Origin: a virus
Direction: 5' to 3' (one strand)
Length of the DNA: 64,000 bases
UHGV virus genome: UHGV-0178594
Shown: positions 8,832 through 51,167 of the stretch, piece by piece
Numbering within the stretch: the first letter of the stretch is position 1
Layout of the letters: each line of letters opens with the position of its first letter
Notes under the pieces: model-generated
Told to the model about the DNA's origin: nothing
Database searches by the model: none
What the model saw: only the letters and a program-made list of their open reading frames with translations
Translations under genes and position numbers: made by a program

Positions 8832-9758
8832 TTAACTAACAATCCAGTCGGTCGCTGCTACATCTTCTGGCTGTAAATCAATCGCACAGATCTTGCCGTC
8901 GCGAAAGGTGCGCCAGTTTTTCCGTGAGCCTCTTTCGGGCCATACCCAGACACTTTCAGGCCAGGATGCTCGACGGCATACGGTTGCATACCCTGTTTTA
9001 ATCTTCTCTCTGGCGGTATGCAACGACAGGTTTGCCTTTGGACTTTCAGGCACAGGATGGTGAATGGCCTGAAATAGCCCCATCCTGGGATGATACCAGC
9101 GTTTGTTGCGTGGTTCAGCCTCCGACATAACCTGCTTAAAGGCTTTCCGGAAGGGGGCCAGGGCCACAATGGAGCGTCTCGCAAGCAAACCATCGGGAGT
9201 TAAAAACTCATGCGTATCTGTGGGGATCCGGTAAGCGTTGACCAGGTTGCGGCATTTGGCTTCAGTCAGGCCGCATTTCGCCGCTAACTGGCGATAGCCA
9301 ATGTAGCCTTCCGGAATATTGCCTTTCTTTATTTGCTCGACGGTTTCAGCGACTTTGGTCACTTGTGCCGATACTTCGGCTACCTGGGCATTAACGGCGT
9401 TGATCCGGCGTTCATGCTCAAGATGCATTTGCGCCATTTCGGCCAGAATTTCGGCTTTTGATTTTAACGGTCCTCTGGCATTCTCCAGTTCGCGCCAGCG
9501 GTCCACCAGCCGGGCGGTGAATTCGGGAGAGAGCTGCGCGACGACGATAATGCTATCGCGCTTGCCTTGTTCGCCTTCGAAGACGTAATAGCTCGCCGGG
9601 CGGCCTGCAGTGGGCTTTTCCTCAATTTGAGGAAAAGTTATTACGCCCCGTTCCGCCAGGTGTTCAATGGTGCGTTTAACGTTGTCAGGACGCTTACCCA
9701 CCAGCTCCGCGATCTCAATACTGGTCATTGTCGCTTTTTGAGAGATGGACAGATTCAT
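8832..9758 (-). CDS. antirepressor-like protein (Rha/Bro-N-type N-terminus) fused to DUF2829-like C-terminal domain
   Basis: N-terminus MTSIEIAELVGKRPDNVKRTIEHL...; C-terminus ...WVWPE...DWIVS; homologous to 50236..50943 plus 50039..50251. Confidence 0.6.
   Translation of the reverse strand: MNLSISQKATMTSIEIAELVGKRPDNVKRTIEHLAERGVITFPQIEEKPTAGRPASYYVFEGEQGKRDSIIVVAQLSPEFTARLVDRWRELENARGPLKSKAEILAEMAQMHLEHERRINAVNAQVAEVSAQVTKVAETVEQIKKGNIPEGYIGYRQLAAKCGLTEAKCRNLVNAYRIPTDTHEFLTPDGLLARRSIVALAPFRKAFKQVMSEAEPRNKRWYHPRMGLFQAIHHPVPESPKANLSLHTAREKIKTGYATVCRRASWPESVWVWPERGSRKNWRTFRDGKICAIDLQPEDVAATDWIVS
9190..9600. repeat. ~0.4-kb direct repeat (left copy) inside antirepressor gene, ~90% identical to 50390-50760
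   Basis: Long identical runs, e.g. aaaactcatgcgtatctgtggggatccggtaagcgttgaccaggtt and ttcgcgccagcggtccaccagccgggcggtgaattcgggagagagctgcgc. Confidence 0.7.
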
Positions 9759-9973
9759 CAGTGCACCTCCACGCAGTTCATTGGCAGATTCCAGTAATTG
9801 AGGATCTCCATCGCATCAAGAGTGAAGCGAGCAGCAAAAATGCAGGGTTCTTCGGGAAGGTATGAGCGCGCTTCTGCTTCGGTTGCAGCCATGACGCAGA
9901 TATACAGGTGTTTTTGGCAGGAATAGAAACGCCAGATAAATTCAGAATGAGTTGGGGTAGGGATAGTAGCCAT
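9758..9973 (-). CDS. Icd-like small protein (immI-type module)
   Basis: 71 aa, ATGA-coupled to antirepressor gene; paralog of 50943..51167 (EFIWRF...AATE.EARS). Confidence 0.4.
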   Translation of the reverse strand: MATIPTPTHSEFIWRFYSCQKHLYICVMAATEAEARSYLPEEPCIFAARFTLDAMEILNYWNLPMNCVEVH

Positions 9974-10785
9974 ATTGGCAGCCTCCTTTGACTAAGTTAA
10001 GGAGCTACCGCGTGAGGTTCCAATCTCAATGGCGGTAGCACTGACTGGGTTGGAACTACCGGCGTCAAAGGGAACCGGCCTGCCTTTCGGCAGCCCAGCC
10101 AGCACTACCATTGATCTCTGAGCTAAACGCTAAGTATGGCTGTGCGATGGCATGACACAAAAAAAGACGCGTTCGGCGTCTGTGTCGCCTTTGACATTAT
10201 CCGGGGTTCCAATCCCGGCACCCGTTTTTCTAAGGTGCCGTAGAAATATACCCCACGATAATGCCAGGGCGCAACTGTGTGTTTTCTTATGCTTTTCTTT
10301 TCTTCTTTTGGGCTTGCTTGCAGGCGTAGGCCATTGCTTTAGCTTTCACTTCATCCAGCTTTCCGGTGATCACTTCTTTTCCGAGAGTGACAAACCAGTC
10401 ATAGCAACCGCCAGTGATGTTCTGGATTTGAAAGTTGAGGTAGCGAACGGTCATTTTGACACCCCCAGCGCGAGTAAAGAATGCAGATTATCGCGTGAGT
10501 GGCGGACAACGAGTGATGGGAAAAGACAGTAGCTGTTCATAGTGTAGTGACTCCTTGCTTTCGGAGCCGCCATCGACTGTTCCACGGTCTGGTGGCGGCG
10601 CAATAAAGGTTGGAACACCGTGAGTCAACGGGGGCTTTTCAGCCACCTATATTGCACCGCCATTGGTATGGCGGCGGCAATCATACGAAAAACCAAACGG
10701 TTTGTCTCAAAAAGTTGACCGGTGTACCAATCGGTTGTGAATGTACAACGGCGAATCTCACAATTCAACTTAAAATGTTAGAAAA

Positions 10786-27631: not shown

Positions 27632-28282
27632 TCACTCCACAACAAACCAGTCACAGGCCAGTAAATCATCCACAGACGGCAACCAAACGCTGTCCATATT
27701 TTGTGCATCTTTCAATACAAAATGGTCACCATAAGGAACGTGAATGCCGTGTAAATTGACGCTTCCAGCGAGAACTAACCAGCAGAATTGCTTTTCGCCT
27801 TTCCACTCGCGTCGGGCAACTTTCTTGCCTTCCTTCAACCACATTAGCGCATCAGAGAAGTCGGCTGCTTCAAGGTCGATTTCTTCTTGCTGGGTGGTGA
27901 TGCCACCAGCAGAAATAGTTACGCTCCCAGTAAGATTAATCATTACGCCGTTGTCATCCGTAATGATGACCGTGGTTCCATTTTTGGAGGCGTCGTTAAC
28001 CAGGCCATAGCATTCCTCAAATGGTTTCTCCGGGGCATAGAACAGATAACCGTTTTCATAAACGATCAGATACCCGCCAGTTTTTGGTCGGTGTTTTTGT
28101 AAAAACATTGCGTCAACACAAACTGTTGCCCCTTTTGGTTCAACGAGTTCGATGCAGCCCCAAAGTGGGGCATCAGTTACTCCGAAAATAACAACATTTT
28201 TGATTTTCGATGCACTAACGTTTTTGTGAGCTTTGTATTTGGGAAGGAACTTAAAAAGCTCTTTCGTTGGCATGTTATTCAT
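27632..28282 (-). CDS. hypothetical protein with C-terminal DUF2829-like domain
   Basis: C-terminus FSDALMWLKEGKKVARREW...DWFVVE resembles DUF2829 phage domain. Confidence 0.5.
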   Translation of the reverse strand: MNNMPTKELFKFLPKYKAHKNVSASKIKNVVIFGVTDAPLWGCIELVEPKGATVCVDAMFLQKHRPKTGGYLIVYENGYLFYAPEKPFEECYGLVNDASKNGTTVIITDDNGVMINLTGSVTISAGGITTQQEEIDLEAADFSDALMWLKEGKKVARREWKGEKQFCWLVLAGSVNLHGIHVPYGDHFVLKDAQNMDSVWLPSVDDLLACDWFVVE

Positions 28283-28296
28283 AGCCTTTCCTCTAC

Positions 28297-28791
28297 TTAA
28301 AACTTTGCGTACTGAAGCGGTGTACGCTTGATTTCAATGCGGTCTTCCGATGTGCTACCAAAGCCACCAGCACCTCGCTCTGTTTCATCGAGTTCATCAA
28401 CTTCTACCAGCGATACCGGTTCAACACGCTCAAAAATGCCTTGCATGACCGCCATTCCTGGCTTGAGGCAAACGCCTTCACCACCGGGATCTGTAATCAG
28501 TTTTGCTTTGATTTCACCGCGATAATCGGAGTCGATAATTCCTACGCAGTTAGCCAGGCGCGTATGCTTTTTGCAGCCCAATCCGGAACGAGGATAAAGT
28601 TTCAGACACCAGCCAGGAGGGATCGCCATAGCGAGGCCGGTATGCACCCACCAGCTTGAGGAAATAGCGCCGTTGCTATTGATACCTGGCGTTATTTCAA
28701 CAGCAATAAAATCCATCGCCGCCGATCCGGCGGTGGCGTAAACGGGGAGTCTTGCCGCCGGATGAAGGCGTTTCACTTTCACGTTAATCAT
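28297..28791 (-). CDS. dUTPase-like protein
   Basis: dUTPase-like motifs AGSAAMDF, RSGLG, GIIDSDYRGEI, RGAGGFGST. Confidence 0.6.
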   Translation of the reverse strand: MINVKVKRLHPAARLPVYATAGSAAMDFIAVEITPGINSNGAISSSWWVHTGLAMAIPPGWCLKLYPRSGLGCKKHTRLANCVGIIDSDYRGEIKAKLITDPGGEGVCLKPGMAVMQGIFERVEPVSLVEVDELDETERGAGGFGSTSEDRIEIKRTPLQYAKF

Positions 28792-36950: not shown

Positions 36951-37026
36951 TGGTGGCCCCTACCGGACTTGAACCGGTGACCGTGCGATTATGAGTCGCC
37001 CGCTCTAACCACTGAGCTAAAGGGCC
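36951..37026 (-). tRNA. tRNA, anticodon CAU (tRNA-Ile2/ileX-like or Met)
   Basis: 76 nt, GGCCCTTTAGCTCAGTGGTTAGAGC...CTCATAA...GGTTCAAGTCC...CCA; close to E. coli tRNA-Ile(LAU). Confidence 0.8.
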
Positions 37027-37455
37027 AGATTACTGTTAATTACGCTTACGCTTTTTGCCAGAACCGCGTAAGGCTTTTGCCGCTTGCTCTACCCCGTATG
37101 CAACCACCAGCAGAAACAATAATGTCCACTCCGGGTTTTTATCGGCAAACGCCCAAAAATCCATCACTTGCAGCCACCTTTTAAGACAAAACGCCATTGC
37201 TGTTAGGTTGCGGTGCCGGGTGCCTCCCGGTGACGTTAACCAGTTAACAATTAACGCCGGATCACTTATGGATTCTCGTTACGCCAGTAAAAAGACCACC
37301 TTTACTGTTTTAACTGTTCCGCGTGCGCTTAGCCGCATTCACCGCAATGGTAAGAGCATTTGGCTGACTGGGCGGCGATGACGCCTGTACGCATTTGGTG
37401 ATCCGGTTCTGCTTCCGGCATTCGCTTAATTAGCCAAATACTCTTAACGTTGCGC

Positions 37456-37542
37456 TGGCGGAGAGTAATGGAATCGAACCATCATCGCTTGCGCAATGGG
37501 ACGGTTTTCAAGACCGCTTGAGCACCATGCTCCCTACTCTCC
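37456..37542 (-). tRNA. type II tRNA, anticodon UGA (Ser candidate), atypical D-arm
   Basis: 87 nt; acceptor GGAGAGT/ACTCTCC, loop CTTGAAA, long variable arm, T-loop TTCGATT, encoded CCA. Confidence 0.5.
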
Positions 37543-37647
37543 AGTGATTGTGATGGTCGGTGCTGAACTCCGACACAGGGTTGTAGCAAGCCCCGCAAAG
37601 CGCGCACTACTGTAGTTGCGGCACATCAGCCTGTGCATTCATCACAA

Positions 37648-37725
37648 CGGTAAGGGTACTTCGTAGGGATTCGAACCCTCTGCCAAGCTCGGCGATCTCC
37701 GACGTCGCAAAATACCCTTACCTGT
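37648..37725 (-). other. tRNA-like fragment / degenerate tRNA
   Basis: Contains GGGTTCGAATCCC T-arm inside an 8-bp closing helix but no canonical D or anticodon arm. Confidence 0.3.
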
Positions 37726-37730
37726 TGTGT

Positions 37731-37806
37731 TGGTGCCGGTTAACGGACTCGAACCGCTGACATCCTGCTTACAAGGCAGGCGCTCTACCAACTGAGCTAA
37801 ACCGGC
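37731..37806 (-). tRNA. tRNA-Thr (anticodon UGU)
   Basis: GCCGGTTTAGCTCAGTTGGTAGAGC...CTTGTAA...GGTTCGAGTCC...AACCGGCACCA. Confidence 0.8.
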
Positions 37807-37810
37807 AATT

Positions 37811-37897
37811 TGGTGGGGAGTGATGGAGTCGAACCATCCGAGTCGCAATGACAGTAGATTTACAGTCTACCCCGCTACCCCTACGGACTAACTCCCC
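37811..37897 (-). tRNA. tRNA-Tyr (anticodon GUA), type II
   Basis: 87 nt; anticodon loop CTGTAAA, long variable arm, T-loop TTCGACT, CCA end. Confidence 0.75.
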
Positions 37898-37902
37898 TAA
37901 AT

Positions 37903-37979
37903 TGGCGATGGTGGGTGGATTCGAACCACCGACCGACAGCTTAGAAGGCTGCTGCTCTATCCTACTGAGCTACACCATC
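37903..37979 (-). tRNA. tRNA-Arg (anticodon UCU)
   Basis: GATGGTGTAGCTCAGTAGGATAGAGC...CTTCTAA...GGTTCGAATCC...CACCATCGCCA. Confidence 0.75.
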
Positions 37980-50007: not shown

Positions 50008-50030
50008 AAAAGCCCCGGCCAAGCCGGGGC
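50005..50030 (-). terminator. rho-independent terminator (minus-strand reading)
   Basis: gccccggc-caa-gccggggc hairpin next to A7 on plus strand. Confidence 0.6.
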
Positions 50031-50038
50031 ATCACACT

Positions 50039-50251
50039 TCAAGTTACGATCCAATCATTACCGACTGCATCCGCCGTCGATAAATCGACTTCCCGGATCT
50101 GGTATCCATTAATACAAAACCATCCAGTAGTAGAGCTATTATCAGGCCAGACCCATACACCAACACTCCATGCTTTACGGCGGCACACTTCAGCCTGTCC
50201 TTCCCTGATTTTTTTTACCGCCTGCATGATGTCCATCACTCGCCTCCCCAA
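50039..50251 (-). CDS. DUF2829-like small protein (separate ORF here, fused to antirepressor in left copy)
   Basis: ...EVCRRKAWSVGVWVWPD...DWIVT; 16-nt overlap with upstream antirepressor ORF. Confidence 0.45.
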   Translation of the reverse strand: MGRRVMDIMQAVKKIREGQAEVCRRKAWSVGVWVWPDNSSTTGWFCINGYQIREVDLSTADAVGNDWIVT

Positions 50252-50943
50252 CCGATTACCTGGAATTGCCCCATCCTTGGGTGATACCAGCGTTTTCCTC
50301 GGTGTTCAGCCTCCGACATCATCAGGGTAAAGGCATTCATGAAGGGAGATAAGGCCACAATAGTACGACGCGACAATACCCCCTCTGGCGTCAAAAACTC
50401 ATGCGTATCTGTGGGGATCCGGTAAGCGTTGACCAGGTTACGGCATTTGGCTTCAGTCAGGCCGCATTTCGCCGCCAGTTGGCGGTAGCCAATGTAGCCT
50501 TCTGGTATGTTGCCTTTCTTGATCTGCTCGACGGTTTCAGCGACCTGGCTAACCTTTGACTCAACAGCATGAAGCCGCTTTTGCTGCTGAACTGCATTCG
50601 CAGCCATTGCAGCGATCATCTCTATTTCGGTCAACGGCTGGCGTACTTGTTCTTCCAGTTCGCGCCAGCGGTCCACCAGCCGGGCGGTGAATTCGGGAGA
50701 GAGCTGCGCAACGACAATAATGCTGTCTCGTTTGCCTTGCTCGCCTTCGAAGACGTAAGCCTCAACGCCACGACGCAATCCTAAGTTATTGATTTTTTCG
50801 AAAACAGCCATTGGCGGTTTTCGGATAATGCTTCGAGCAACCATACGCTCAATACTACGTTTAACGTCAGAGTGTTGACTTCCCACCAGCTCCGCAATCT
50901 CAATGCTGGTCATTGATAGTTTTTCGAGAATGCAGATATCCAT
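50236..50943 (-). CDS. antirepressor-like protein (Rha/Bro-N-type)
   Basis: Paralog of 8832..9758 N-terminal 230 aa; ~90% identical DNA stretches. Confidence 0.6.
   Translation of the reverse strand: MDICILEKLSMTSIEIAELVGSQHSDVKRSIERMVARSIIRKPPMAVFEKINNLGLRRGVEAYVFEGEQGKRDSIIVVAQLSPEFTARLVDRWRELEEQVRQPLTEIEMIAAMAANAVQQQKRLHAVESKVSQVAETVEQIKKGNIPEGYIGYRQLAAKCGLTEAKCRNLVNAYRIPTDTHEFLTPEGVLSRRTIVALSPFMNAFTLMMSEAEHRGKRWYHPRMGQFQVIGWGGE
50390..50760. repeat. ~0.4-kb direct repeat (right copy) inside antirepressor gene
   Basis: See left copy; same orientation, ~41 kb apart. Confidence 0.7.
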
Positions 50944-51167
50944 CAGTGAGCCTCCGCAATGCCGGGATTGGTAATATTGCGATACCAGGGATTAGTGTTT
51001 GGTTGTGGGGAAGTAGAGAAACGACCAGTGAGAACGCCATACTGATCAGGGATCAGAGAACGGGCTTCTTTTTCAGTTGCGGCAATTGCGAAGTGATCAC
51101 AATGTTTTTGCAGGGAGTGGAAACGCCAGATGAATTCTGGACGTGAGCAATGATTGGCATTAACCAT
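50943..51167 (-). CDS. Icd-like small protein
   Basis: Paralog of 9758..9973; ATGA-coupled to antirepressor. Confidence 0.4.
   Translation of the reverse strand: MVNANHCSRPEFIWRFHSLQKHCDHFAIAATEKEARSLIPDQYGVLTGRFSTSPQPNTNPWYRNITNPGIAEAH

Follow-up and report, generated by a model that had tools for sequence, protein, structure and literature searches.

Tad2 proteins sequester the signals of the Thoeris, CBASS and Pycsar defence systems, and every characterised Tad2 is, to our knowledge, a signal sponge. They form one of the main phage sponge families that defeat signalling-based bacterial immunity. Within the fold, helix α1 is an oligomerisation element, and helix α2, which belongs to the insertion between strands β2 and β3, builds a V-shaped dimer. 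A second described system is the immI region of phage P1, in which the C4 antisense RNA blocks translation of icd and hence of ant. Two immI-like regions have already been reported in D6-like elements (PMC6799933). In this study, we analysed a stretch of 64,000 nucleotides (nt) of the virus genome UHGV-0178594 (the window), which, judged by its sequence, is part of a D6-like, P1-family phage-plasmid. Its two immI operons each contain a domain of 65 amino acids (aa), which is fused to the antirepressor protein (Ant) in the left operon and encoded by a gene of its own in the right operon. Within the Tad2 fold, this Ant-linked mini-domain forms a new and narrow variant.

The window operons resemble the immI regions of P1 and P7 in having C4 genes (Rfam RF01695), an a1b1 target in the right operon, an icd-like first open reading frame (ORF) and a coupled ant, and also in the complementarity of the C4 loop to the Shine-Dalgarno region of the first ORF. 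They differ in that their Ant proteins belong to the Rha family and are not detectably P1-type by Pfam, and in that a Tad2-fold domain or gene is added at the 3' end. Two related cassettes, on the contigs L052 and L053, are unlike P1 and P7 in lacking both icd and ant, with the mini-domain as the only C4-controlled ORF.

For comparison with Tad2 (PF11195), we used SPO1 Tad2 (8SME-8SMG), ModTad2 (9EIB/8V3E), HgmTad2/AcrIIA7 (8KBI) and SptTad2 (8WJD). Like these proteins, the fused domain (copy 1) and the free-standing domain (copy 2) run through helix α1, an antiparallel sheet, a short helix α3 and a last strand. Unlike them, copies 1 and 2 measure 65 aa, against 88-104 aa in the solved Tad2 chains, and they are fused or coupled to an antirepressor and placed under C4 control.

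The antirepressor-linked domain is a minimal Tad2-like domain

An earlier note on the window, made from the sequence alone, had listed three DUF2829-like segments, one fused to an antirepressor, one separate from the other antirepressor, and one at the end of a larger protein. All three were found at the coordinates it gave, and a Pfam search showed that both their PF11195-like character and the accession given in the note were correct. Copy 1 comprises residues 244-308 of the left Ant (LSLHTAREK...DWIVS; 8835..9029, (-) strand), of which residues 247-307 match PHROG 7385. Copy 2 is a free-standing 65-aa gene (MDIMQAVKK...DWIVT; 50039..50236, (-) strand; PHROG 7385, E = 4.9e-47). The fused and the separate arrangement were thus both seen, and copy 3 indeed lies at the C-terminus of a 216-aa protein (27632-28282) that ends in ...DWFVVE. 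The remark in the note that the domain has no assigned function is out of date: PF11195 is now named "Tad2-like, Thoeris anti-defense 2-like domain", and ligand complexes have been solved.

All three copies are Tad2-like, as the note had proposed, but they are not equivalent, since only copy 3 passes the Pfam gathering threshold for PF11195 (25 bits). The scores were 66.7 bits for copy 3 (E = 2.8e-18), 16.1 bits for copy 2 and 10.5 bits for copy 1, the latter two falling below the threshold. Copies 1 and 2 align without gaps over 65 residues at 38% identity (E = 3e-16). A significant alignment of all three segments was found at the level of profile and structure, not in pairwise comparison of copy 3 with the others: BLASTP gave no significant alignment of copy 3 with copy 1 or copy 2 (E = 0.57 and 83), and its kinship with them therefore rests on profile and fold evidence. 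The Ant-linked copies 1 and 2 are a separate, minimal and very narrow subfamily, remotely related to PF11195.

When 1.84 billion cluster representatives were searched exhaustively with HMMER, just seven proteins matched. Two of these, P0005 (96 aa, E = 3.4e-9) and P0006 (68 aa, E = 2.3e-8), are diverged relatives that stand alone; another, P0008, is a low-complexity repeat protein and was disregarded. P0005 itself matches PF11195 across the full profile (E = 6.2e-5, 23.9 bits) and thereby links the mini-family to Tad2 transitively. We then compared profiles with hhalign. The six-sequence mini-family aligned with a 34-sequence Tad2 domain alignment, which contained four solved Tad2 proteins, with a probability of 90.3% and an E value of 1.5e-6 (positions 1-65 against 1-84); an earlier comparison with a thin five-sequence Tad2 alignment had given E = 0.011 and a probability of 3.8%.

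The AlphaFold2 model of the 65-aa protein, built from a five-sequence alignment (predicted local distance difference test, pLDDT, 74.7), has the Tad2 order of elements, namely an N-terminal helix, an antiparallel β-sheet and a short helix before the last strand. In a Foldseek search of 350,542 PDB chains, the top 15 matches were all Tad2 (probability 0.75-0.96; query-normalised TM-score, TMq, 0.52-0.59), and the next matches reached at most 0.14. Structure prediction, which the earlier note had suggested as a check, thus returned Tad2 proteins as the best fold matches. The mini-domain and Tad2 also have in common the signature A..G..V.R..W in the N-terminal part and D....DW in the C-terminal part, and the mini-family has an invariant motif of its own, CRR..W....W.(W/F)P. 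These results indicate that the Ant-linked mini-domain has the Tad2 (DUF2829) fold in a reduced and divergent form. This minimal branch of the fold has been overlooked by current annotation, and it is tied to the immI operons of common E. coli and Salmonella phage-plasmids.

Further searches added little. A word-index homologue search with the 65-aa ORF found three near-identical clusters and nothing further, scans of genome contigs gave no match, and a PDB sequence search with a three-sequence mini-profile gave chance matches only. Nothing relevant was returned by NCBIfam and PADLOC, and weak matches to DsrB and DUF1233 were taken as chance. A metagenome scan with P0005 gave matches of just 32-37% identity (residues 4-94 or 25-94) and none closer; these matches probably represent D6-type fused and split copies.

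Organisation of the C4-controlled operons

Both window operons lie on the (-) strand and consist of a promoter, the C4 antisense RNA gene, icd, ant and then the 65-residue domain. In the right operon, a promoter scan gave a promoter-like site (51442-51414) shortly before the a1/b1 target sites of C4 (51368..51420; RF03163, 55.2 bits). The C4 gene (51214..51299; RF01695, 69.6 bits) has a loop, TCGTAAGT, that pairs with ACTTACGA at the Shine-Dalgarno region of icd. The icd-like gene (74 aa, 50943..51167; D6 homologue annotated as Icd-like) overlaps ant by TGATG, and ant encodes a Rha-family protein of 235 aa (50236..50943), as assigned by Pfam, PHROG and comparison with D6. The 65-aa gene comes next and is directly followed by an intrinsic terminator (50012..50030) of eight G-C pairs and then TTTTTT.

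In the left operon, the C4 gene (10028..10115; RF01695, 77.1 bits) has the loop CCTTTGAC, which pairs with GTCAAAGG at the Shine-Dalgarno region of icd, and the two operons of the window thus have different C4 specificity loops. The icd-like gene (71 aa, 9758..9973), whose D6 homologue is likewise annotated as Icd-like, has a stop that overlaps the ant ATG by 1 nt. The left ant (8832..9758; PF09669, 30.5 bits; PHROG 63, E = 5.9e-62) encodes 308 aa, made up of a Rha-family N-terminal domain, a coiled-coil middle and the mini Tad2-like domain at the C-terminus. The Pro-rich linker HHPVPESPKAN connects the Ant body to the mini-domain; the right Ant stops after ...FQVIGWGGE*, at the place where the left copy runs on into this linker. 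The D6 homologue of the left ant, orf82, is annotated as an anti-repressor. In both Ant proteins the only Pfam family above threshold was Phage_pRha, with no P1 Ant1/2-type homology detected, and both are best regarded as putative antirepressors, a label that rests on gene position and membership of PHROG 63.

The diverged standalone relatives lie on phage-plasmid-like contigs of 88-90 kb, L052 and L053, the latter with partition genes of the ParM/StbA type. Each contains a minimal immI cassette (L052:3752-4291; L053:3746-4207) of a1b1 targets, C4 gene, mini Tad2-like ORF and terminator, with no icd and no ant. The a1b1 sites are located upstream of C4 (RF01695, 67.8 bits in L052 and 66.6 bits in L053), the mini-domain gene begins 45-53 nt past the C4 gene, and a terminator-like hairpin follows it directly in both contigs. 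The mini-domain therefore occupies the icd/ant slot and is the sole protein of the operon. No other protein detectably shared with the window was found at the L052 and L053 loci, which argues that C4 plus mini-domain is the conserved module.

The C4 loop was complementary to the Shine-Dalgarno region of the first ORF in four of four operons, with compensatory differences between them. The loop is CTTGAGT in L052, with the target ACTCAAG, and TTTCTTGAGTG in L053, with the target CACTCAAGAAA; across the operons the C4-complementary stretches of 7-11 nt stop 11-15 nt short of the last base of the start codon. We also inspected 74 other IMG/VR loci that have this C4 core. Their first ORF was Icd-like in 50 cases, and the mini-domain was confined to D6-type right operons (9 loci), apart from one deletion remnant.

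Selection on the fused and split copies

We compared substitution patterns in related loci, using the ratio of nonsynonymous to synonymous change (ω) and the synonymous differences per synonymous site (pS). The fused domain is under purifying selection (ω 0.10-0.18 at pS ~0.33-0.36, 26 loci), comparable to the rest of Ant. The split ORF is close to neutral (ω ~0.8-0.96 at pS ~0.03), and the right-hand Ant in the same loci has an ω of 0.28 overall and 0.085 in its C-terminal part. The minimal numbers of nonsynonymous and synonymous changes were 18:5 in the split ORF and 21:46 in the fused domain (Fisher p = 1.6e-4), and residues 19-29 hold 8 of the 15 positions that vary in the split ORF (hypergeometric p = 1.5e-4), counts that are small and that ignore phylogeny and recombination. 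Residues 19-29 are the equivalent of the ligand-contacting β1-β2 loop of Tad2. The pattern in the split ORF fits either relaxed constraint or diversifying selection. This natural pair of a fused and a split copy under contrasting selection provides a ready genetic experiment.

The pS of the 65-aa gene is about five to seven times below that of the adjacent ant (50042-50236 vs 50239-50943, 19 loci), and the gene may have undergone a recent sweep or be constrained at the nucleotide level. One variant of the split ORF carries R19 -> C at a position that is otherwise invariant in the family, and three proteins with a truncated or frameshifted mini-domain were found (P0002, P0003 and P0007). In L095, a relative of 50039-51167, the first bases of ant run directly into codon 45 of the small ORF as the result of a deletion. 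Both ant and the greater part of the mini-domain are missing, and the right immI operon is therefore decaying there.

Tad2 proteins and the outgroup relatives of the mini-domain are free-standing, and for this reason the standalone form is probably ancestral and the left fusion derived. The N-terminal 107 aa of Ant are 75% identical to lambdoid Roi, which shows that ant is mosaic; the similarity is limited to these residues, and Roi provides no ancestral C-terminus for Ant.

Possible functions of the mini-domain

Our preferred but tentative reading is that the mini-domain is a burst-expressed binding module of the Tad2 kind that would sequester a nucleotide-derived host signal. The split gene would be translated by coupling to ant, as suggested by the conserved TGATG overlap and the GGAGG upstream of its ATG. 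By the model of P1 immI, the mini-domain would be made only once C4 repression is outrun, in a burst after DNA entry or on induction, and C4 gating would hold it off in the lysogen. It would then oligomerise and, as lytic growth or establishment begins, capture a small host signal derived from a nucleotide, and the fusion to Ant would be one among several carrier fusions of Tad2 domains in these elements. Because the pocket residues are changed, 3' cyclic ADP-ribose (3'cADPR), the canonical ligand, is probably not the one bound. Tad2 proteins have a wide ligand range and use more than one pocket (PMC12393519), so these changes need not exclude binding.

This reading draws on several further points. 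The standalone relatives of 68 and 96 aa in unrelated elements speak for autonomy of the domain, and the constraint on the fused copy indicates that a function is retained. Canonical Tad2 domains are modular, with fusions to a Dec-like OB (oligonucleotide/oligosaccharide-binding) fold, a dUTPase, a tail-fibre repeat and crAss001_48. Finally, gated expression in a burst at entry would be apt for anti-defence.

Other observations weigh against signal sequestration. Ten residues of SPO1 Tad2 contact its ligand, gcADPR, or water (W25, N26, W73, D79, I63, T65, D67, H71, S76 and T78; numbering of the Tad2 paper, bioRxiv 10.1101/2023.05.01.538930). Of these, the split copy retains only three (W25, S76 and D79) and the fused copy only two (W25 and D79), and in the alignment N26 is replaced by S or P and W73 by V or I. 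The β2-β3 insertion with helix α2 is deleted in all six members of the mini-family, which makes a tetramer and canonical pockets doubtful. A family of seven matches in 1.84 billion representatives is extremely narrow and unusual for a sponge, the structural model is of moderate confidence only, and the near-neutral evolution of the split ORF could mean decay. Every lineage of the mini-domain was found in an immI operon gated by the C4 antisense RNA and none outside, and none of the 74 other IMG/VR loci with the same C4 core contained a canonical Tad2. The known cargo of the C4 gate, Icd and Ant of P1, disrupts lysogeny and not host defence. We know of no earlier description of an exclusive link between a Tad2-like domain of this kind and C4-gated immI operons.

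These last points lead to an alternative that we consider possible but rather doubtful, in which the Tad2 fold has been exapted as an immI effector, acting as an antirepressor module or as an obligatory partner of the Rha-type Ant, and would bind a protein, for instance a C1-type repressor, instead of a small molecule; C4 gating would then exist since synthesis of the mini-domain would break lysogeny. Confinement to C4-gated immI operons in three different arrangements fits such a role, as does the position of the mini-domain in L052 and L053, where it is the sole ORF between the C4 targets and the terminator and has its Shine-Dalgarno sequence paired with C4. The loss of the Tad2 ligand residues and dimer loop, the lysogeny-disrupting cargo of the P1 gate, and a constraint on the fused copy as strong as that on the Ant body are also consistent with it. 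The variation of the split copy is clustered in the β1-β2 loop, as expected of a specificity surface, and small antirepressors of ~70 aa exist, for example P1 Coi. However, the searches made revealed no similarity to any known antirepressor, Tad2 has no established protein-binding member, and a C4-gated burst at entry would be equally apt for an anti-defence gene. In addition, Ant is already present in the D6-like operons, which would make a second antirepressor redundant, and an ω near 1 in the split copy is odd for an essential component of a switch.

On balance, it seems unlikely that phage-plasmids have adopted the Tad2 sponge fold for their lysis-lysogeny switch, whether as the real antirepressor module or as a ligand sensor through which a nucleotide signal of host immunity or stress would tune the activity of Ant. 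Were this the case, prophage induction or establishment would be coupled to host signalling immunity, and the L052/L053 cassette of C4 plus mini-domain would be the simplest known immI module. Binding of a repressor would define a new type of antirepressor descended from a sponge fold. If the preferred reading of signal binding is correct, the range of sponge ligands and architectures would be widened, and immI-type gates would time the expression of anti-defence genes.

We further considered the improbable explanation that the mini-domain is no more than a structural or oligomerisation part of Ant and that the right copy is a detached remnant drifting to loss. The excess of nonsynonymous changes in the split ORF relative to the fused domain, its R19 -> C variant, the truncated or frameshifted proteins and the L095 deletion would all be expected of such a remnant, and helix α1 is known to oligomerise in Tad2. 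Against this, the ORF, ATG, Shine-Dalgarno sequence and terminator were intact in 20 of 20 complete IMG/VR loci, and tblastn with the small ORF matched 122 plasmid records, in 121 of which at least 80% of the ORF was covered. The C4-gated standalone relatives, which have no Ant partner, argue for an autonomous role. The low pS of the split ORF makes its ω noisy, and diversifying selection is equally compatible with it.

The split in the right operon is natural

The earlier note had described the right copy as a 70-aa ORF overlapping the antirepressor gene by 16 nt and had left open whether it was a frameshifted pseudogene or a natural split. The results showed that the overlap is 1 nt. On the (-) strand, ant ends in ...ggt tgg gga ggc gag TGA, and the ATG with which the 65-aa gene starts, at 50236, shares its A with the third base of this stop codon (gagTGATGgac); GGAGG lies 6 nt upstream of this ATG, and the apparent overlap of 16 nt arose because a mechanical TTG start had been taken. 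Of 20 related loci, 16 have a TGA in this frame two codons ahead of the ATG, between the position of the TTG and the ATG, which excludes the longer TTG-start reading as well as a realistic frameshift fusion. Both junctions of the operon, icd-ant and ant-small ORF, are TGATG overlaps, and the whole chain is therefore built for translational coupling.

The comparison of fused and split arrangements across related phages, which the note had also proposed, gave two clearly distinct types across 47 IMG/VR loci. All 20 complete loci of the right type encode the domain as a 65-aa ORF of its own, with one more locus partial, and the left-type domain is always in frame with upstream ant sequence. The junction between ant and the small ORF is conserved in these 20 loci and in D6. 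The annotation of D6 and of RefSeq plasmids (Prokaryotic Genome Annotation Pipeline, PGAP) likewise has two genes, the 65-aa one overlapping by 1 nt. The 122 plasmid records usually matched at two places each, which we take to be the split and fused copies. The right copy is thus a natural split, as seen in D6, the 20 IMG/VR loci and RefSeq, and cannot be put down to a frameshifted pseudogene or an error in sequencing.

A sequencing or assembly frameshift, a pseudogene or a programmed frameshift that rejoins the small ORF to ant is extremely improbable, since the one point in its favour, a small-ORF frame that in the window alone is open for 23 codons upstream, is opposed by the same junction in D6 and the 20 loci, the occurrence of the small ORF in 122 plasmid records with two genes annotated by PGAP, the right Ant's own stop after ...GWGGE, and the few bases, with no slippery run, left between TGA and ATG in 16 of 20 loci; programmed frameshifting is rejected because of this TGA, which most relatives have.

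Further features of the left operon

A match to the isrK-type Hfq-binding small RNA (10160-10238, (-) strand; RF01394, 61.3 bits) was found just upstream of the left C4 gene, at the place where the right operon has its a1b1 target element. The two immI operons therefore differ in leader organisation.

In 6 of 26 related loci (L036-L041), the left ant is broken upstream of the fused domain, and an ORF of 98-201 aa still terminates in the mini-domain. Inspection of L037 and L038 revealed frameshifts at different positions, and the 120-aa ORF of L037 recurs in L039-L041. These broken genes could be pseudogenes or assembly errors.

Copy 3 is a canonical Tad2 domain in a 216-aa protein

The 216-aa protein (27632..28282, (-) strand) consists of a Dec-like OB fold at the N-terminus (about residues 10-95; 27985-28252; assigned by Foldseek), a low-confidence linker and a canonical Tad2 domain (residues 141-215; 27635-27862; PF11195). 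In PDB sequence searches, it matched ModTad2 (E = 7.5e-11, 39-42% identity) and SPO1 Tad2 (E = 5e-6). Its AlphaFold2 model has a pLDDT of 78.6, with both the Tad2 domain and an N-terminal β-barrel confident, and Foldseek again gave ModTad2 (E = 9.4e-8, target-normalised TM-score, TMt, up to 0.90). W25, W73, S76 and D79 are retained, N26 is changed to K, and the β2-β3 loop is shortened relative to sister alleles. Public databases name the protein "DUF2829 domain-containing" or "Thoeris anti-defense Tad2 family". Copy 3 is an ordinary new member of the Tad2 family, a sponge candidate closest to ModTad2, which binds histidine-ADP-ribose (His-ADPR) and cyclic UMP (cUMP). It is a routine but testable anti-Thoeris candidate in phage-plasmids.

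The N-terminal OB fold resembles phage L Dec (6E3C; Foldseek probability 1.00, E = 3.6e-3), with 29% identity over 82 columns and a sequence-level E of 0.02. Unlike Dec, copy 3 continues into a Tad2 domain instead of a C-terminal spike, and its gene lies in the cre-dUTPase-isaA accessory region, away from the head genes; the OB fold may bind capsids or serve only as an oligomerising carrier. By tblastn, the N-terminal part alone was matched in several phage records of Klebsiella, Ralstonia and Pseudomonas. The Tad2-domain alleles of P1/D6-like elements (27635-27874) comprise a short-loop form with REWKGE, present in the window, and a long-loop form with RGWNGE. The junction peptide IDLEAADFSDALMWLKEGK hardly varies, even where overall identity between the proteins is below 40%, which suggests that N-terminal modules are swapped by recombination at this boundary.

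The gene of copy 3 is located between the dUTPase and isaA-like genes, and D6 has a shorter version of it (146 aa). The homologue in SJ46 is likewise directly upstream of isaA, and that in RCS47 (FO818745.1 15495-15950) is interrupted by IS1 next to isaA; the locus with which IS1 is associated in P1-like phages may therefore represent a Tad2-domain gene that has been disrupted. In the relatives P0075, P0038 and P0080, a canonical Tad2 domain is fused to a dUTPase, a tail-fibre repeat or a C-terminal crAss001_48. The dUTPase-Tad2 fusion probably arose by deletion, because the dUTPase gene (28297-28791) adjoins upstream in the window.

The element

Both antirepressor regions match Escherichia phage D6 at ~89-92% nucleotide identity, and the gene order at both sites is the same in D6. 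Besides D6, no phage record matched most of the length of either region. The protein of the 65-aa ORF is 100% identical to one encoded on the 90-kb E. coli plasmid pEC361_3. The assignment to a D6-like element follows from this identity, the gene order at both sites and the pEC361_3 match. Some related phage-plasmids are described as bearing resistance genes. The window also includes a cre-dUTPase-isaA accessory region, an ORF of 2283 aa that corresponds to a D6 gene with an annotation of similarity to P1 darB, and a cluster of four tRNA genes (36954-37979, (-) strand; RF00005).

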